A DNA stretch of 12,456 nucleotides from a virus: the UHGV virus genome UHGV-0079174; one strand, given 5' to 3'. Below, piece after piece: positions 1,310 through 12,332 of the stretch. Under the pieces are notes generated by a model, which was not told where the DNA came from, searched no databases, and saw nothing but the letters and a program-made list of their open reading frames with translations. Position 1 is the first letter of the stretch. Every line of letters starts with the position of its first letter. Position numbers and translations under genes: made by a program.

Positions 1310-1457
1310 GCTACTTAATAGTTTCCTATATGAAAGTTAGGAGGCGATAGTTATAGTTCCTTCGTAGTTCCCCTTAAAAAATCACTTAGAGACATCTTAA
1401 TCTATATGCAGATTTCACGTAGAACACGATTAGTGCGTAAAACAGCTATTATGTTAA

Positions 1458-1486
1458 AAACACACTGTGTTTATATCAGTACTGAT
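1458..1486. promoter_or_regulatory. Two adjacent palindromes, operator-like
   Basis: AAACACA-C-TGTGTTT (1458-1472, 7-bp arms) and a perfect 12-bp palindrome ATCAGTACTGAT (1475-1486), 2 bp apart. Confidence 0.3.
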
Positions 1487-1916: not shown

Positions 1917-1940
1917 CTAAAAAGGACTCCCGAAAGAGTC
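1917..1940 (-). terminator. Candidate intrinsic terminator on the minus strand
   Basis: Stem GGACTC (1923-1928) / GAGTCC (1935-1940), 6-nt loop. On the minus strand the hairpin is followed by TTTTAGTTTGT. No T-tract follows it on the plus strand. Confidence 0.3.
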
Positions 1941-1975
1941 CCTATAAGTCGATTTTTAACGTGGCTACGACAATC

Positions 1976-2029
1976 CACCCATACCGCACCAAACCTTACC
2001 CCACCGAACCGCACCCTACACGACCTTAC
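1976..2029. repeat. C-rich (plus strand) / G-rich (minus strand) imperfect tandem repeat
   Basis: CCGCACC occurs twice and CCTTACC twice within about 55 bp (roughly CACC..ACCGCACC..CCTTACC repeated). Compositionally unlike the flanking AT-rich DNA. Confidence 0.3.
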
Positions 2030-2550
2030 CTCGCCGGACACTGCCATAGAGAGTGTGCTTGGTTGCTTTGGAAGTAAACCTAGTACAGTAAGCCATTATA
2101 CATATCGAGATAGTAACGTCAAGAAACTTTTAACAGGAGGGGTTCCTATGGTCACATATTCCCTCTCTTCCCACTAAGTAAGTCTTAGCAGCACCTAAGC
2201 AACAATTGACTAACAGGTTCGGTAGAGTCTATCTCATAGGTCAACTTCATAAACTCAGAGTTAAGTTACCTTGAAAGATTCTACCAAGAAACTACACAGG
2301 TGTTATTTAGTCTGACTGTGAAGGGATATTTAACGGGAGGAGAGATACGATATAACCCGAAGGGAGAGTATCATCTTAACAATTATCTTAAGAATAAAAC
2401 TGAAAAGTTCTTAACAGATGACTACCTAGAAAGAAGGGAACGATAAGACCAGAGGTAGTGACCTTGTTAAACAGGCTGTTTCAAAGCTCTTAAGAGTCTG
2501 TTAAGTAAGGGCTATGTGAACAATCTTACCATTTTGTCAATGCTTTTGTC

Positions 2551-2634: not shown

Positions 2635-3303
2635 GTGTCACATCCAATAATCAATGTTGGTCGTTATCATGGTGGTTCTGATGACTGGCGTACACCGTAT
2701 CGTTTATTTCATAATCTGCATCGTGAGTTTAACTTCAGTCTAGATGGCGCTGCAACTGAGCATGACGCATTGTTGCCACGGTTCACCGATGATATTCACA
2801 ATCAATCATGGGTTGGTGAACGGGTCTTCGTTAACCCGCCGTTTAGCATGGCTGAAAAGTTCCTCTTAAAAGCCCCTGAAGCTGATGTGTGTGTATGTCT
2901 GGTTCCGCTCAGGTCAAAGACAACTTACTGGCTTCGGTGTGTATATACAAACCCCTTCCTGCATGAGATTCGAACGTTGCACCGAGCAGTCAAATACCTT
3001 CCACCAGCAGGAAAGAGAGGTGTTGTAGTGCGCTCACCGTTTCCAAGTTGCGTTTTGATATACAGGAACACACCCCGCAAACCGAAAGTTGAAGTTACCC
3101 AGACAATCTATTGTGGTGACACAATGCTTTTACTTGCCGTGGTTAACAGGGGTGGTTTACGTGGAAGACCTCATATGCACAATGCACAGACGCTTGACAG
3201 GTTGATTAAAATGTATGACCAAGGGCAACCCATCAAGAGCATCGCAGAATCGCTAAGAATGCCTCTAAGCACCACTTACAGGATTGTTCAAAGGTTGGGC
3301 TGA
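2635..3303 (+). CDS. Phage Dam-family DNA N6-adenine methyltransferase with C-terminal helix-turn-helix extension
   Basis: 222-aa ORF, GTG start 9 nt after AAGAGGGG. N-terminal DDWRTP, then VFVNPPFS (N/DPPY/F-type catalytic motif) and LVPLRSKTTYW...SPFPS, the pattern of phage Dam-type orphan methyltransferases. The last ~40 aa (GQPIKSIAESLRMPLSTTYRIVQRLG) read as a resolvase/Hin-type HTH. Family assignment is from motif memory, not a search. Confidence 0.7.
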   Translation: MSHPIINVGRYHGGSDDWRTPYRLFHNLHREFNFSLDGAATEHDALLPRFTDDIHNQSWVGERVFVNPPFSMAEKFLLKAPEADVCVCLVPLRSKTTYWLRCVYTNPFLHEIRTLHRAVKYLPPAGKRGVVVRSPFPSCVLIYRNTPRKPKVEVTQTIYCGDTMLLLAVVNRGGLRGRPHMHNAQTLDRLIKMYDQGQPIKSIAESLRMPLSTTYRIVQRLG

Positions 3304-4161: not shown

Positions 4162-4190
4162 TTGACATTAGTCTTTGAAAATGCTAGTAT
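4162..4190 (+). promoter_or_regulatory. Sigma70-type promoter (first of two matching promoters)
   Basis: -35 TTGACA (4162-4167), 17-bp spacer, -10 TAGTAT (4185-4190), followed by TGTATATATAGG (4191-4202), which is identical to the 12-mer after the second promoter. First gene starts 51 nt downstream. Confidence 0.55.
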
Positions 4191-4240
4191 TGTATATATA
4201 GGTTAACACAGAATTAACAATTATAAGGACTAGCTTATGA

Positions 4241-4795
4241 ATGAGAGACGCAGAATTTAGAGCGATGCTTCAGGCATCGAGACAACGTAACAGATACAAC
4301 TCCTACAGCTACACAGACACCCCCACCAGCTACGAATTACCCAAGCTCACCCAAAAAGAACGCAAAGGCATTGACGAAGTAATTCGGGCAATTACACCGA
4401 GGGAACGTTATATGCCAACCAGAAAGAGCACGAAGAACAGCATCAAAAATTATTTGAATAACTTCGACAGCTATGAGCAACTACCAAGTAAGCTTGATGA
4501 TATTTTCATTGGATTCTGTAGAAGTGAAGGCCACCCGAAATACAACAAAAAACTATTTTATCTTCTAAAGAATCTTGACGAAATTAACGCATCCAGCGTG
4601 ACAAATCGTCTTCAGCGTCAAGCAACCAGACTTAGCTACGAATTACCAACCGATGCCTATTGTGCATTGCTTGCTGTAATGTGTGCAAAGCTAATTGGTA
4701 TTGTTGAACATCATATTGCCGTTGGTAATATTGAGCCAATGGAAAACGAGCAACCAGACTTTGAGTTTGACCCGTATATTTTGGAGGAATTTTAA
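4241..4795 (+). CDS. Hypothetical protein with acidic C-terminal tail
   Basis: 184-aa ORF, ATG at 4241 preceded by TAAGGA. C-terminal EPMENEQPDFEFDPYILEEF. No recognisable domain. Confidence 0.55.
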   Translation: MRDAEFRAMLQASRQRNRYNSYSYTDTPTSYELPKLTQKERKGIDEVIRAITPRERYMPTRKSTKNSIKNYLNNFDSYEQLPSKLDDIFIGFCRSEGHPKYNKKLFYLLKNLDEINASSVTNRLQRQATRLSYELPTDAYCALLAVMCAKLIGIVEHHIAVGNIEPMENEQPDFEFDPYILEEF

Positions 4796-4796
4796 A

Positions 4797-5078
4797 ATGG
4801 GAAATAAACACACATTAACCAGAGTTACAAAGACAGCCTTTGAAGAGCTTAACCGAATCAAAAACATTACAGGTCTGCCACACTCAGCAGTGATGAAGCT
4901 TGCAATTAACCGTGATATTAACGAACAAGATTTGCTTAATAGTCGCTTAGAGGCAGCAAGACACCATATCAGGATTAAGCAAGATGACCTTGATAGTCTG
5001 AAATATTTAAATGCTTTTGGACTGGATTTAGCAAGGTTACTAAGCATCAAAATTCACAAATTAGCGATGGAGGTTTAA
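4797..5078 (+). CDS. Small protein, possibly a ribbon-helix-helix DNA-binding protein
   Basis: ATG at 4797 sits 9 nt after GGAGG (4783-4787) and 1 nt after the upstream stop; the track's 4695 start would overlap the upstream gene by 100 nt. N-terminus KHTLTRVTKTAFEELNRIKNITGLPHSAVMKLAI resembles a strand-helix-helix pattern. Fold call is tentative. Confidence 0.5.
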   Translation: MGNKHTLTRVTKTAFEELNRIKNITGLPHSAVMKLAINRDINEQDLLNSRLEAARHHIRIKQDDLDSLKYLNAFGLDLARLLSIKIHKLAMEV

Positions 5079-6270: not shown

Positions 6271-6378
6271 CAGCTTTTAAAAAGCATACATGGCAAACGC
6301 TTTTAAGTCTCTTCTAAGTTCGTAGGCTGTCAGGTGTGCTTTTTAAAAACTGAATATTACTTAGAAGAGGAAAATGAA

Positions 6379-7086
6379 ATGGAAAATCTATATATTAGCG
6401 GTAGAAAGGTTGATAGCTTCGGTGACTGGTCGCCACAGACTGAACATCCAGCTATCACTATTCAGCGTAAAGAACACGATGAAAGAATTAAGCTTGAGCA
6501 ATCGTTAAAGATGTCACCAAAGGTAATTTCCTTTGTGTCTCCTGAGCCTCAAGAAATGCCAGATATCTGCAAAAGTGAAGCACTATTTAATCTTGAGCGT
6601 GAATATTACCCACAGTTAAAAGCACAGCGTATTAAACTTGATGACGCTTACAGCAAAGTTACCCTGATGCAATCAGCTATTGAGCCGTCAGAATTTGAGA
6701 TTCAGGATGAATTGTCACAGAAACCATTTGTCTATTACAAATATGAAGACAATGATGGTTTTGGTACTTTTCCTGAGAATATCCCAGACGTGATTAATAA
6801 TCTTTCTGACGGATATCGAATTGTGAAGATGGTTAAGGCATCAAGAGGTGCTGGTCAGTTTATTTACATGACTAATAAGAGCGATGAAGAACTCGCTGAA
6901 CTTGCTAGACAGAACATCTTGGCATCACGTAACAAGCAGCTTGATAGTGCTAAGTTGTATCTCTCAAGAGAGCTTCAGGCTATGAAAGAGCTTGTTAGTG
7001 AATATGAGTCGCAGAAGAAGGTTGCTATGCAGGCTGATATTGAGCAGCTTACGAAGATTTCTAGCAAATATGCAAAAGCTATTTGA
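6379..7086 (+). CDS. Hypothetical protein with C-terminal coiled-coil-like region
   Basis: In-frame ATG at 6379 preceded by GAGGAAAA (6367-6374); the track's GTG at 6334 has no ribosome-binding site. 235 aa from 6379. No recognisable domain. Confidence 0.55.
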   Translation: MENLYISGRKVDSFGDWSPQTEHPAITIQRKEHDERIKLEQSLKMSPKVISFVSPEPQEMPDICKSEALFNLEREYYPQLKAQRIKLDDAYSKVTLMQSAIEPSEFEIQDELSQKPFVYYKYEDNDGFGTFPENIPDVINNLSDGYRIVKMVKASRGAGQFIYMTNKSDEELAELARQNILASRNKQLDSAKLYLSRELQAMKELVSEYESQKKVAMQADIEQLTKISSKYAKAI

Positions 7087-7699: not shown

Positions 7700-7814
7700 G
7701 TATATGTGCTACGTGATGATTCGGATAAGAATTATCCTCATGAAATCTGTAAAGCTAATACCCACACTGAAAAATAGAATTTACGTACAACACGCTTAAA
7801 GAGGTGAAACATGA

Positions 7815-9863
7815 ATGAGCAAATTCACAGTTGATAGTTTTATCGTTGAACTAGGCTTCAATGAGAACGTTATTAAAGGTCTGCAAAAAGTTGAAAAGGC
7901 AGCTTTGCAGTCAGCACAAAGAATTGAACGTAATTTGAATAGAGCGTTTAAGGTCGATACCAAGCAACTTGACAGTAATTTAACGGCTTCTTTAAAGTCA
8001 ATGGAAGGGAAGATTAATAAGACCTTTGACCGTCTGGAAGCTAGAGCAAAAAATACTAAAGCTTTCCGTTTCACAAGTCAGGTTAATGACGCTATTAATC
8101 CTCCAAAACAACCAAGACAGCCACGAATTAGCGGAAACAGAGCAATCACAGCAGCTTATTCAGCTAATATGAGCAAGCTGAAAGGTCTTAACCCAATTGT
8201 CGAGAAATACATTAAGAGTCAGTTTTACGCATTAAGTAGTAAAGCTGGTCAGATGGATAACACCAAGTTTAATGAAGCCCTCGCTAAACTAAATTCAAGT
8301 GTACGAGAAGCAATTGCTAAAGCCAGAGGTCATACATCCACCAGCATTAACGGTGACAGAGCAGCTAGCAGTCTTGATAGTCTGTCTTCAGCAGCAGTTA
8401 AAACAGCAGGTGCATTTATCAGCTTTCAGGCTGTACTATCCGCTTATCAGCGAGTAATGGAAGTTGGCCTTCAACGTGCATCATCGGAAAGAAGTATTGA
8501 TTTCGTATTCGGTGACCAAAGTACACAGGTTAAAAAGTTCATTCAAGATTTAACTCAAATTACTGGTATGGACACAACCGAAACACAAGCACAATTTGCT
8601 TCATTTGGTGCATCTGCAACGACTACGATGGGTCTTGAAGGGTCAGAAGAGTTATTTAAAAACCTTACAGGTTATGCTCGTTTAATGGGTCGTTCAGATG
8701 AGCAGATTCAAAGAGCATTAACCGCAGTGTCACAGATGGCCTCTAAGGGTCAGGTGATGGCTGAGGAGTTGAAGGGGCAATTATCTGAAGCTTTGCCGGG
8801 TGCTACTCAGGCATTTGCAAAGGCTTTAGGTCTGACTGAAAAACAACTTTTCGATAAGATGAAAAATGGTGATGTTAAAGCCTCTGATGCACTTCCTAAG
8901 TTTGCTAAAGAACTTGGTGCACAGATTAATTCAAGAGGTGGCTGGAAAGCTATTCAGGACTCTACGCAGACAATGTTAGGGAACTTAAAGAATACCTGGA
9001 ATAACTCACTAACGGATATTTTCAGAGGTTCTGAAAATGGTCTGCAAGATTTTACACGAAGCCTAACAACGCTTTTAAACAGTTTAGGTGGAAGTGGTAA
9101 AAGTCTTGGTGAATCTCTTGGTAGCTTGATGACTGATATGTCGCATGGTGTGGATAGCCTGACCGATATCAGTTACAGAGTGAGAGCTTTCTTTGATGAG
9201 GTGACATTGGCTTACCGTGGTTTAACCGATGAGCAAAAGAAAGTAGTTGATGCTTTAGGTTCTGGCTTGATTAATAGTTTAAAAGTCTTGGCTGGTGTTA
9301 TTGCTGTAAATAAAGTTGTTGGTGTAACCAGAAGTATTTACGGGCTTATGACTGCTATCACAAGATTAGGTCAGGTCGCTGATACAACAGCGGATAACGT
9401 GAATAGAAAGAACGGGAAACCATCAAGGTTTAATCTTGGGAATATGCTATTAGCTGGTAGTGCTATCTATGCAGGTTATGAGAGATTAGCTTCTACGCCT
9501 GAACGAATGGAAGCACAAGCTAAATTACCAGAGCTGGCTAAAGAGTCTGGACTTAAGCCAGTATTTACTATGGACGATGTGAAAGGTTGGTTTAATAGTG
9601 CTGCTATGAATCTTGCTAACTTCCAGCATCCAGAATTAATCACCATGAGACAAGATGCGGCATTAACGAATACGGATATCCAAAGCCTGAGAGATGAAAT
9701 TAGTGCTTTGAGCAAACGTATTCAGGAGCCTGTGAAAGTTTCACTTGGTGGTGAAGTTGCCATTAAACCAGATGAAACCAGCTTTATGACCTTTAGCAGT
9801 AATATCTACGACCAATACGCAGAAGCTACGCTATTAAGTTCATCATTCCCAGAAGATGATTGA
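7815..9863 (+). CDS. Tape-measure-like protein (phage tail length tape-measure domain)
   Basis: 682-aa ORF, AAGAGGTGA before ATG 7815. Central segment KGQVMAEELKGQLSEALPGATQAFAKALGLTEKQLFDKMKNGDVKASDALPKFAKELGAQ matches the conserved tape-measure domain pattern from memory. A/S/G/L-rich helical composition with internal hydrophobic segments. Confidence 0.6.
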   Translation: MSKFTVDSFIVELGFNENVIKGLQKVEKAALQSAQRIERNLNRAFKVDTKQLDSNLTASLKSMEGKINKTFDRLEARAKNTKAFRFTSQVNDAINPPKQPRQPRISGNRAITAAYSANMSKLKGLNPIVEKYIKSQFYALSSKAGQMDNTKFNEALAKLNSSVREAIAKARGHTSTSINGDRAASSLDSLSSAAVKTAGAFISFQAVLSAYQRVMEVGLQRASSERSIDFVFGDQSTQVKKFIQDLTQITGMDTTETQAQFASFGASATTTMGLEGSEELFKNLTGYARLMGRSDEQIQRALTAVSQMASKGQVMAEELKGQLSEALPGATQAFAKALGLTEKQLFDKMKNGDVKASDALPKFAKELGAQINSRGGWKAIQDSTQTMLGNLKNTWNNSLTDIFRGSENGLQDFTRSLTTLLNSLGGSGKSLGESLGSLMTDMSHGVDSLTDISYRVRAFFDEVTLAYRGLTDEQKKVVDALGSGLINSLKVLAGVIAVNKVVGVTRSIYGLMTAITRLGQVADTTADNVNRKNGKPSRFNLGNMLLAGSAIYAGYERLASTPERMEAQAKLPELAKESGLKPVFTMDDVKGWFNSAAMNLANFQHPELITMRQDAALTNTDIQSLRDEISALSKRIQEPVKVSLGGEVAIKPDETSFMTFSSNIYDQYAEATLLSSSFPEDD

Positions 9864-9930: not shown

Positions 9931-10020
9931 TCACGCTTAACAGATAAAACACTTAAATATCAAAGGCTTGGTTAAAAATGATTAAAATACACTAAGTCTT
10001 TGAAATCAAAGGAGAATATA

Positions 10021-10794
10021 ATGATTTACACTAATCAACTTCGTTACAGTGGCAAAGATGGTATCTATTTCCACTTAAGAGATAATGTAGATGCCTTCTT
10101 AACCTTATCAGCAACTGAAAACATGGAATTTGACAGCCCTATGCAGGTGACTACACAGAACATGCAATCAGGGCAAACCGTAACAGATAACGTGCAAAGA
10201 GCACCCAGAACAATCACTATTAGTGGTGTCGTTGTAGTTGGCTATGAAGGAAGCTTATTATTAACTCGTCAGGGTCAATTAGTAGAAAATTTCATCGACA
10301 CTCTTGAAAGCTGGCGTGACCAGAAGCAGATTATTTCTGTCATCTGTCGAGACGGTATCAAAATTGATGATTCCATTATTACGAGTTTTAAAGCCTCTAA
10401 AGATGTTGGAATTTCAAATGGTCTAAGAATCCAGCTAACTTTTCAGGAAATTAACTTCAAAGCCATTGTGGGTCAGACTGATATCTCTGCTGCAACTGGA
10501 AAGACCGCTACCACAAATGATGGTGGTGCTACTTCTAAGAAAAATACGGGTAACACTACGACAAGTCTAGGTAATGGTATGTTGATGTGTCAGGAGCTAT
10601 ATAATCGCTCTACGAGTGAACTCACTAATGAGCAACTTCAAGCCCGTATCAATTGTGGTAGAAGTGTCAAAGTTGAGAACGGAAAAAGCACCTTCTCAGA
10701 TGCCGCTAATGAGCAAGCTTCGAAAGTGCTTAGTAATGCTGGTACAGGTAGTACTTTGAAGAAATTTTCTGTAAATCCTAACAAGCGATACTGA
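10021..10794 (+). CDS. Hypothetical protein, possibly tail-associated by position
   Basis: ATG at 10021 sits 6 nt after AAGGAG (10009-10014); the track's TTG at 10000 is less likely. 257 aa from 10021. C-terminal third is T/G/N/S-rich low complexity. Function is inferred only from lying immediately after the tape-measure-like gene. Confidence 0.5.
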
Positions 10795-10808
10795 CGATAG
10801 AATCTCAA

Positions 10809-12332
10809 CTATATGATAACCTCATCAACATCTATTAAACCCCTCTCAGTGACTTCAGAAAGCGACTGTATAGCCTCTGTAACGTCCTCTGAGGGGTTTT
10901 CTGTTATTGATAGGTCAATTACCTTACCGTTGTGAAAACTTACTTTACAGCGACGTTTAGCAGTATTTAAAACGACCTCTTTAACAGCACTTTTGATTAT
11001 CAGTTGTGCTTCAATCCTTCCCGCCTTTGTAGTCAAGTCACAATCAGACAAACAACCAACATCAATAGATTTAAGGCGTTGTGTCTCCTTCTCGATATCC
11101 GCATCAACCTGTGATAGCTCACCTTTTAACTGCTTTAGTTTGATGGTAATAGCTGACAAATCTTCAATTTCAAGTGATAGCTGTACCAGCTTTTCAATAT
11201 TGCTTGAGATGTGTTCACGGTGTAGCTTCAGCGTATCTATGGTATTCGTCATATCGCTATCAAATCGGTCAAGACGAGATAGCAGGGTAAGTAATGTACC
11301 ATCAGTTTGCTTACGTGAAAGTCCTTTAGCACTACAACGGTTTTCATTACGAAGGGGACAACGATAAATCCCGCTTCTTGTATCGCTAAAGCCTGTGATA
11401 ATCAAAGCATGACCACATTCAGAACAACGGATAACACCTTTGAAAAGATTCACAGCCATTGGCTTATCTGAAGCAGGTTTTCTACCGTAACGAGAATATG
11501 ATAGTTGTTGAACTTTGTAGAATGTTGTTTCATCTATAATTGCAGGATAATAACCAGCTATCTCCTCACAGCCTTTAGGTGTGAAGTAACCAATTACAGA
11601 GCGATTTTTCAGAAGGTCTTGTACTGAGGTTTGACCAAATGAACCCGCTTTATATTGGTTAAGCGTCTGGTGACCTTCATCATTAAGAGTCCTGACAATC
11701 TCCCAGATAGACTTACCCTCTAACCGTAGCTGAAAGCACCTCTTCACAGTCTCCACTTTCTCAGGGATTACAGAGAAGCTTTTACGGTCATCATTAAGCT
11801 TAAGCCATGCAGGACAACGTTTAGAAATCTTGATACCTTCAGAGATGAGTTCTTTTTTACGGTTCCATGCAGCTTGTATACGCTCAGACTTCCTCAAACT
11901 CTCCTCATGCGACCGCTGCATTATCAGAATGCTTTTAATCAGAGCTAACGGGTCTTTAAGAGATTCTCGTGTGTAATGTTCACCATCGGACAAGGTGACC
12001 ACATCTACACCAGAGCGAAGAATGTTTCTGAGTAGCTCACTTGCTTGGTCTACATCTTGACGTGACAGACGGTCAAGAGATTCTATCAAGAGCGTATCAC
12101 CAGCTTTAACAAGCCCTTTCTCGATAGCGGTTAAAAAGTCACCTAAGCCACCTTTCAAGTGCTTACCAGTGAACCCACTCACCCCCAAATCACGGAAGGA
12201 TAAATCTTGGTCAAGGTAGTACTCAGGATGAGCCTTAAGCCAGTCATTAACCATCTTAGACTGTCTGCGTAGTGAGTCGCCTTTGGCTTGTCGCTCAGAA
12301 CTGAATCTGATGTAGCTGATTACACGTTTCAT
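10809..12332 (-). CDS. Large serine recombinase (probable integrase of the element)
   Basis: 507-aa ORF. N-terminal resolvase-type catalytic domain with YIRFSSERQ (nucleophile-serine motif, compare YIRVSTEEQ), a Cys-rich zinc-ribbon-like segment CSECGH...YRCPLRNENRC, and a C-terminal coiled-coil region. This is the domain order of phage-type large serine integrases. Confidence 0.85.
   Translation of the reverse strand: MKRVISYIRFSSERQAKGDSLRRQSKMVNDWLKAHPEYYLDQDLSFRDLGVSGFTGKHLKGGLGDFLTAIEKGLVKAGDTLLIESLDRLSRQDVDQASELLRNILRSGVDVVTLSDGEHYTRESLKDPLALIKSILIMQRSHEESLRKSERIQAAWNRKKELISEGIKISKRCPAWLKLNDDRKSFSVIPEKVETVKRCFQLRLEGKSIWEIVRTLNDEGHQTLNQYKAGSFGQTSVQDLLKNRSVIGYFTPKGCEEIAGYYPAIIDETTFYKVQQLSYSRYGRKPASDKPMAVNLFKGVIRCSECGHALIITGFSDTRSGIYRCPLRNENRCSAKGLSRKQTDGTLLTLLSRLDRFDSDMTNTIDTLKLHREHISSNIEKLVQLSLEIEDLSAITIKLKQLKGELSQVDADIEKETQRLKSIDVGCLSDCDLTTKAGRIEAQLIIKSAVKEVVLNTAKRRCKVSFHNGKVIDLSITENPSEDVTEAIQSLSEVTERGLIDVDEVII

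Follow-up and report, generated by a model that had tools for sequence, protein, structure and literature searches.

A probable stand-alone VIPR guide RNA gene on a satellite of FelixO1-like phages, with a guide code predicted to match host REP elements

What is encoded by the G-rich block that adjoins a hairpin on the minus strand of the virus genome UHGV-0079174? The window, by which we mean the whole stretch of DNA that was analysed, is 12,456 nucleotides long, and a preliminary description of its letters had read hairpin and block as the end of an antisense or other non-coding transcript. We find that the minus strand from position 2122 to 1917 very probably encodes a VIPR guide RNA (vrRNA; type II, SUSP1/FelixO1-like clade) as a stand-alone gene, carried on a 12.3-kb phage satellite. 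VIPR is the subject of a bioRxiv preprint of June 2026 and of a companion cryo-EM preprint (10.64898/2026.04.26.720920; 10.64898/2026.04.26.720927), and SUSP1 is a FelixO1-like phage. Both the kind of element and its presence on such satellites are already described; the locus in the window is a new example, unannotated in E. coli chromosomes, of a class described only months ago.

The window comprises essentially the whole of an element of about 12.3 kb that splits the E. coli gene yecE (L004, 15096-27405), with halves of this DUF72 gene on both sides. Its profile is that of a complete satellite of virulent FelixO1-like phages, apparently the one associated with SUSP1/FelixO1 in the preprint. 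The following genes were located within it, together with a gene for a Dam-type methyltransferase and several genes of unknown function:

10809-12332, minus strand: large serine recombinase gene, at one end of the element
7815-9863: tape measure gene
10000-10794: Dit-like baseplate gene, in which 10045-10593 is 92-95% identical in DNA to Felixounavirus

Outside the Felixounavirus-like Dit stretch, megablast of the window against phages returned no match. A lambdoid prophage with a tyrosine integrase (L004, 27816-33635) directly adjoins the satellite at the other yecE half, so that two elements lie in tandem at one attachment region. Over its final 55 nt the window shows full identity to the yecE junction found in Stx-converting phages.

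The RNA gene itself is composed of the following parts, given in the direction of transcription:

2122-2095, minus strand: predicted sigma-70-type promoter, with -35 box TTGACG (2122-2117), a 16-nt spacer and -10 box TATAAT (2100-2095)
2089-2046, minus strand: 5' leader of about 44 nt, ending in a conserved CTCTAT directly before the first repeat
2045-1981, minus strand: guide region of 13 GGYNN units (11 GGY and 2 TGT) in strict 5-nt phase
1980-1947, minus strand: invariable 34-nt 3' tail, GGGTGGATTGTCGTAGCCACGTTAAAAATCGACT, an H-type pseudoknot
1978-1975 and 1964-1961, minus strand: tail helix S1, GTGG with CCAC
1971-1968 and 1951-1948, minus strand: tail helix S2, GTCG with CGAC
1960-1952, minus strand: A-rich loop of the tail
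1943-1917, minus strand: predicted intrinsic terminator, a 9-pair stem with a UUCG loop (1943-1922) followed by TTTTT

The promoter matches the consensus at 11 of 12 positions and is the best of any found in a promoter scan of 900-2800. Other satellites have a promoter in the same place with a different sequence (TTGATG-17-TATAAT; TTGACA-17-TAAGAT), and the junction of leader and first repeat, CTAT/GGC, is kept among them. Transcription would start at about 2088. The leader is presumably trimmed off, because mature vrRNAs have a published size of about 100 nt. The terminator is a G+C-containing hairpin directly before a U tract on the transcribed strand, and is kept in other satellites (L008, L018, L154-L160). 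It is the only terminator-like site in 900-2800; shuffled sequences have 1.0 on average, so that the hairpin by itself is not above chance. In the minimum free energy fold of the whole transcript the guide pairs with the leader (z = -2.7), a fold that was not relied upon because protein is expected to cover the guide.

These boundaries bear out much of what had been noted from the letters. The hairpin that had been placed at 1923-1940, with a U-tract on the minus strand, is the single minus-strand terminator, and the limits given for the feature, 1917 and 2045, coincide exactly with the end of the T-tract and with the first repeat, the gene itself reaching further upstream to its promoter. A minus-strand promoter, which it had been suggested to seek between about 2050 and 2600, is predicted in near-consensus form at 2122-2095. 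A minus-strand transcript does appear, by prediction, to end near 1917, given the strong promoter about 170 nt upstream, the intrinsic terminator and the lack of any annotated gene. The antisense part of the proposal did not survive: the RefSeq annotation of an identical locus has no plus-strand gene opposite, and no feature on either strand at the position of the vrRNA.

Searches for known RNAs gave zero matches to Rfam 15 over the whole window at gathering thresholds, chance-level matches only for 1000-2700 at E<=10, and nothing with ARAGORN. Since this RNA is not represented in Rfam 15, the identification was built on the two preprints and our own comparisons. A minus-strand ORF of 92 amino acids (2047-1769) does exist in the sequence and overlaps the block, and the locus might on that account be taken for a protein-coding gene. 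We regard this as scarcely credible: RefSeq/PGAP leaves the ORF unannotated in the identical locus, the frame runs through the terminator hairpin, and between satellites the guide is wholly different while the period that is kept is 5 nt, not 3 nt.

On the minus strand, 5' to 3', the guide units are GGCAG TGTCC GGCGA GGTAA GGTCG TGTAG GGTGC GGTTC GGTGG GGTAA GGTTT GGTGC GGTAT, and their free positions spell the code AG CC GA AA CG AG GC TC GG AA TT GC AT. A perfect in-phase GGY begins 11 of the 13 units; when these 68 nt were shuffled 20,000 times with their composition preserved, the mean was 2.7 and the maximum 7. The remaining two units have TGT instead, and such units are present in phage vrRNAs too. 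The G-rich block that had been remarked on is real, but its description as repeated GGTAAGG and GGTGCGG units falls short of what is present at 2045-1981, namely 13 strictly phased pentamers.

Relatives of this RNA are present in FelixO1-like phages. When 1700-2400 was compared with phages by sensitive blastn, only window positions 1948-2048 were conserved, in 108 FelixO1-like phages; megablast of 1000-2700 against phages returned nothing, the conserved 100 nt being visible only in the distant mode. Every phage locus examined has 2-5 vrRNA units, on the gene-sense strand and in two intergenic clusters, which flank a gene for a 195-aa protein and sit in the replication gene cluster beside the DNA ligase gene. 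Each unit consists of a short hairpin, 9-16 pentamers in which GGY is kept and the other two bases are free, and one of four tails. Over 689 units from 57 unique guides, the frequencies are G 0.85, G 0.99 and Y 1.00 at the first three positions, figures that are partly circular in that the unit parser demands GGY-like units, and no base exceeds 0.38 at positions 4-5; raw listings give the same pattern. Literature searches on Felixounavirus satellites, noncoding RNA and sRNA, and the FelixO1 genome paper, yielded no mention of the repeats.

The architecture is that of a published class. According to the preprints, type II vrRNAs are about 100 nt long and have 9-16 YNNGG repeats with GGY conserved and NN hypervariable, followed by an invariable tail, which in the SUSP1 clade forms a pseudoknot (10.64898/2026.04.26.720920; 10.64898/2026.04.26.720927). 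Each repeat takes up one protomer of the RAMP-fold protein Vipr, with GGY sequestered and NN presented; NN pairs with double-stranded DNA, one target base is skipped per repeat, hence every third, and transcription is silenced (10.64898/2026.04.26.720920; 10.64898/2026.04.26.720927). The data described there are for SUSP1 and a P. fulva prophage: homologous vrRNAs are expressed in SUSP1, co-purify with Vipr and guide DNA binding, and the roadblock to transcription is shown for phage vrRNAs (10.64898/2026.04.26.720920; 10.64898/2026.04.26.720927). Published targets lie on the SUSP1 satellite in E. coli, some satellites encode vrRNAs against other satellites, and VIPR is presented as a non-contiguous RNA code for DNA reading, proposed to be older than CRISPR (10.64898/2026.04.26.720920; 10.64898/2026.04.26.720927).

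Judged by its sequence, the gene in the window fits a type II vrRNA on every count. Its 13 units at 2045-1981 on the minus strand lie within the range of 9-16 pentamers, GGY is conserved and NN hypervariable over the 57 unique guides of phage and satellite loci, and the tail is an invariable pseudoknot. The guides also behave as the published code would predict. At the preprint's threshold of an 80% NN match, 42 of the 57 unique guides have a match of at least 80% in the 13 satellites searched when a 1-nt skip is applied; a skip of 0 gives 2 of 57, as does a skip of 2. Our own small data set thereby reproduces the published 1-nt skip rule independently.

Arrays of related appearance were also seen in IMG/VR, in a search for seven in-phase GGT units. 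Among the matches listed (L021-L139) there are plain microsatellites and many unrelated viral contigs with complex GGY/NN arrays, several of which (e.g. L030, L040, L117) carry many tandem arrays with a short conserved linker. Many of the listed arrays have their end a short distance before a ribosome-binding site and ATG. The listed GGY/NN arrays are probably other VIPR types.

A promoter and a terminator bracket the block, and with GG every 5 nt two-tetrad quadruplexes are formally possible; these facts would equally suit a generic small or antisense RNA that ends at the terminator and whose G-rich repeats form a G-quadruplex or some other structural or regulatory element. This explanation is very improbable. 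A quadruplex does not need the pattern conserved across 57 guides, in which GGY recurs exactly every 5 nt and NN varies freely. Canonically it takes four or more runs of at least 3 G with short loops and folds in dependence on K+; here the runs are nearly all GG, and homologues have frequent TGT, AGT and GGC units that interrupt the G runs while the pyrimidine after GG is kept. The opposite strand is without a gene, and homologous RNAs co-purify with Vipr and guide DNA binding (10.64898/2026.04.26.720920; 10.64898/2026.04.26.720927). What had been put forward as a generic G-rich repeat and quadruplex candidate is better seen as a VIPR guide region followed by a pseudoknot tail, which the preliminary description missed. 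Its objection to a quadruplex, namely loops of excessive length, misdescribes a block in which GG recurs every 5 nt, and is moot because the element is something else.

Of the four phage tail types, one is nearly identical to the tail of the window RNA. In an alignment of 20 distinct tails, these types differ in sequence, align without gaps and share the same H-type pseudoknot: 89% of cells are paired (S1 100%, S2 83%), and 9 of the 11 pairs have compensatory changes on both sides, a result that none of 500 shuffles reached. When the pairing partner is slid by 1-3 columns, pairing falls to 27-40%. In helix S2 the window has GTCG/CGAC where the phages have GGTAG/CTACC, a compensatory difference. 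The G-U pairs of the tail fit the G-rich strand only (e.g. G14-U29 in 3 tails), which indicates that the G-rich strand is the functional single strand.

This last result bears on whether the block could act as DNA. The marked G/C strand asymmetry of the block, which a strong promoter precedes, and the position of the phage units in the replication gene cluster beside the DNA ligase gene, could conceivably reflect a Rho utilisation site on the C-rich plus strand, or an R-loop replication origin, derived from the helper phage, in the G-rich block. There is little to recommend such a DNA-level element, as no plus-strand transcript is predicted into the block, and the compensatory changes and G-U pairs of the tail fit only a folded single G-rich strand. 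For an R-loop, moreover, clustering of G would suffice; one protomer per repeat accounts for the exact 5-nt phase and the free spacers together.

Several further candidates were considered and set aside. A sponge for a TRAP-like ring protein has the right architecture and the wrong protein, and CsrA, as the target of a sponge, needs GGA. A Chi mimic, a primase site array, a boxA/boxC antitermination site and a class-switch-like R-loop origin all leave the strict 5-nt phase and the covarying pseudoknot unexplained.

The 195-aa phage protein (L002, 1839-2423, minus strand) has H17, K33, E71, M72, R138, C173, D177, W178 and R179, the Vipr residues named in the cryo-EM preprint, and its gene is on this ground vipr. 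When SUSP2 Vipr and the 146-aa protein encoded beside it (Vap) were compared with the satellite by tblastn, nothing significant emerged, only noise. An HMM built from Vipr homologues 170-230 aa long, which scores 1.8e-84 on a phage control, had no match at E<=10, with filters off, in any reading frame of the window or of 20 other satellites. A complete VIPR locus has adjacent vipr and vap genes, and by this standard the vrRNA of the window is an orphan. As the satellite has no vipr, its vrRNA would work only with Vipr from an infecting helper phage, and the near-identical tail suggests that helper Vipr could load it. The RNA half of VIPR appears here to travel alone, which would leave hijack of the helper protein as the sole working route.

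The satellite is itself a predicted target of the phage system. About 17 sites in the window match FelixO1-like phage guides at >=80% NN with a 1-nt skip, and they cover the left non-coding region and the genes for the methyltransferase, for proteins of unknown function, for the tape measure (start and body) and for the recombinase. The highest scores are 21/22 at 6299-6331, immediately before the ORF at 6334-7086, and 24/26 at 6757-6795. The predicted sites are:

1313-1345, minus strand: phage-guide target
4953-4991, minus strand: phage-guide target
6299-6331, minus strand: phage-guide target
6757-6795, minus strand: phage-guide target
8037-8081, minus strand: phage-guide target
11644-11682, minus strand: phage-guide target
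2405-2443, plus strand: phage-guide target
2856-2891, plus strand: phage-guide target
4180-4212, plus strand: phage-guide target
4399-4443, plus strand: phage-guide target
4582-4629, plus strand: phage-guide target
6978-7013, plus strand: phage-guide target
7803-7838, plus strand: phage-guide target
8241-8276, plus strand: phage-guide target
8732-8770, plus strand: phage-guide target
9949-9978, plus strand: phage-guide target
12045-12080, plus strand: phage-guide target

Among 5,426 complete E. coli genomes, 548 have elements related to the satellite, the sites being yecE, ymdF/wrbA and yciI/tonB. Many of these elements lack the vrRNA locus, which is present in 153 of the 5,426 genomes; in 57 of the 153 the match covers at least 80% of a 231-nt query made up of promoter, leader, guide, tail and terminator. 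The satellite guides fall into four classes. Those of G1 (L149, L154-L156, L159, L160) match a left non-coding site of other satellites at 21/24, those of G2 (L018, L158, L161) match window 1435-1470 and its homologues at 20-21/24, G3 has no match, and G4 consists of the window and L140. The G2 target in the window, which lies outside the RNA gene, is:

1435-1470, minus strand: predicted target of the guide of rival satellites (L158/L018), 20/24 NN

Promoter, leader and guide of L140 and of the window form one nearly identical block, for which reason the identical guide of L140 is not evidence of selection. The two loci differ in the tail and terminator only, L140 having a phage-like tail and a different terminator stem, which points to mosaic recombination of the 3' part. 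In L149, L159 and L161 an extra insert of about 40-80 nt (TATGAGGTTTATTCACTAAACCGAATCAACTATAAGG...) lies between pseudoknot tail and terminator hairpin.

Across the satellite family, the left arm varies greatly. Many satellites have a gene for a small (about 183-aa) resolvase/invertase-type recombinase just left of the vrRNA position, at these places:

L154-L161, about 10263-10815: recombinase gene of about 183 aa
L143, 1993-2541: recombinase gene of about 183 aa
L149, 3499-4047: recombinase gene of about 183 aa

The left arm of the window instead encodes a 277-aa protein (188-1021) with no Pfam match and, in some records, a myosin/kinesin-like annotation. It is followed by 1.6 kb without convincing ORFs (1021-2635), which hold the vrRNA gene and target sites for the guides of rival satellites, namely 1435-1470 and a weak one at 1522-1548. 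The same stretch has many copies of a (C)TTAACAG-like motif (e.g. 1707, 1791, 2132, 2410, 2570), to which the motifs CTTAAGAGTC and GGTCTTTTAA between the vrRNA units of FelixO1-like phages are related.

What, then, does the guide in the window read? It is predicted to be directed at REP elements of the host and not at a rival element. The REP-type target sequence is:

TAGGCCTGATAAGCGCAGCGCATCAGGCAATTTTGCGTT

Compared with 20 other satellites, the guide has all its sites of at least 21/26 in flanking host DNA, and inside the first 12 of them, scanned at a cutoff of 19/26, there is no match of at least 19/26. The exact 26-position target pattern is absent from IMG/VR. The REP between yaeF and nlpE (L162) matches at 25/26, the sole mismatch being in the AT next to the tail, a dinucleotide that hardly varies among vrRNAs, and the REP between torZ and cmoB matches at 23/26. 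On the carrier's own chromosome (200 kb, arbitrary coordinates) four REPs match at 24, 23, 22 and 21 of 26. REPs of Escherichia whittamii and of an Enterobacteriaceae genome (L152, L153) reach 26/26; two such matches are about what chance would give once the REP core is matched, so that the significant part is the match to a REP subfamily, not to one locus.

The match depends on the published geometry of reading. At the REP, 25/26 is obtained with a 1-nt skip, versus 17-19 with skips of 0, 2 and 3, and shuffles of the NN order of the guide reach 20 at most. Among 61 guides compared with 240 kb of host DNA, no other guide longer than 10 NN reaches 80%. At >=80% NN with a 1-nt skip, REPs thus qualify as natural DNA targets, of a class unlike those of the published satellite vrRNAs; the available text of the two preprints does not mention REP (10.64898/2026.04.26.720920; 10.64898/2026.04.26.720927). 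The REP-type 44-mer occurs in each of 5,426 genomes, at 29 to more than 40 places among the matches listed, and by a rough extrapolation with wide Poisson error there would be on the order of 100 target sites per host genome. In the phage collection a REP-type target was seen only in host-DNA contaminants or transduced fragments, and in no FelixO1-like phage. The true target may also be a satellite variant outside the sample, since the 20 satellites stem from about 550 satellite-bearing genomes and a satellite target could have escaped.

A course of events can be proposed from these observations. Host RNA polymerase would transcribe about 170 nt from the sigma-70 promoter to the intrinsic terminator, both predicted, and trimming of the leader, suggested by the published size, would leave an RNA of about 100 nt with 13 GGYNN repeats and the pseudoknot tail. 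This RNA would be loaded only when infection by a FelixO1-like helper phage supplies Vipr. The filament would then read double-stranded DNA through NN, skipping every third target base, and act as a transcriptional roadblock, as the preprints describe for phage vrRNAs. By computation, the guide code would direct it to chromosomal REP elements of the host rather than to another satellite. If the REP match is functional, helper Vipr could be drawn to many host sites, with a protective sink or an action on the chromosome as the outcome. We put forward, tentatively and as a possibility short of an even chance, that the orphan guide RNA of the satellite reprograms helper Vipr onto about 100 host REP sites per genome, either as a sink that disarms anti-satellite VIPR or as a means to manipulate the host chromosome.

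A simpler function, compatible with vrRNA identity, would be that of a decoy. An over-expressed vrRNA could soak up helper Vipr, at 13 protomers per RNA, and leave the anti-satellite vrRNAs of the helper under-loaded, the content of the guide being irrelevant or merely harmless. The satellite has no vipr and is itself a match for numerous phage guides, with some 17 sites of >=80% in the window, the promoter is near consensus, and the guide points away from helper and satellites and towards abundant host repeats, a possible sink. A sponge needs no DNA match, yet this guide matches a REP subfamily at 25/26 and only under a 1-nt skip, which suggests that DNA binding itself matters. Guides of other satellites, furthermore, match rival satellites, and satellite vrRNAs are accordingly not decoys in general. 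We hold a pure sponge to be unlikely.

Should redirection of helper Vipr to REP elements be true, this would be the first VIPR directed at the bacterial chromosome, and the first parasite found to hijack the RNA-guided weapon of its helper by means of a self-encoded guide. The reading of a host repeat family would, if real, widen the use of VIPR. If the REP match is non-functional, the locus is one more satellite vrRNA of the reported kind.

The closest known counterparts are the type II VIPR vrRNAs of the SUSP1 clade. The 13 pentamers of the window fall within the published 9-16, array and tail together measure about 100 nt, and both have hypervariable NN and an invariable 3' pseudoknot tail. 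The window gene differs in that it resides on a satellite, not on a phage, and has neither vipr nor vap beside it. It is one gene that has a promoter and a terminator to itself, whereas the phages have an array of units separated by hairpins. The best predicted targets of its guide are host REPs, not a satellite or prophage as in the published cases described.

CRISPR crRNAs and the class 1 RAMP (Cas7) filaments are similar in having a guide with a conserved handle, one RAMP-fold protomer per short guide repeat, a thumb that flips bases out at regular intervals, and RNA-guided DNA binding. VIPR, as the preprint presents it, has no CRISPR array, adaptation genes or PAM (10.64898/2026.04.26.720920; 10.64898/2026.04.26.720927). 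The guide of a vrRNA is also non-contiguous, with 2 of every 5 RNA bases pairing with 2 of every 3 target bases.

The TRAP site of the Bacillus trp leader has 11 (G/U)AG triplets with spacers of 2-3 nt and binds one protein subunit per repeat. It resembles the window in its conserved triplet, free 2-nt spacer and number of repeats (about 11-13). The triplet of the vrRNA is GGY throughout, in place of (G/U)AG triplets 2-3 nt apart; a helical RAMP filament stands against an 11-mer ring, and informative spacers against inert ones.

Orphan guide or repeat RNAs on mobile elements, such as phage mini-CRISPR arrays and RNA anti-CRISPRs, use or block a foreign effector. As with these, the satellite carries the RNA half only and the partner protein comes from another genome. 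The difference is that the protein of the window vrRNA would come from the very helper phage that the satellite parasitises, to be either redirected or titrated.
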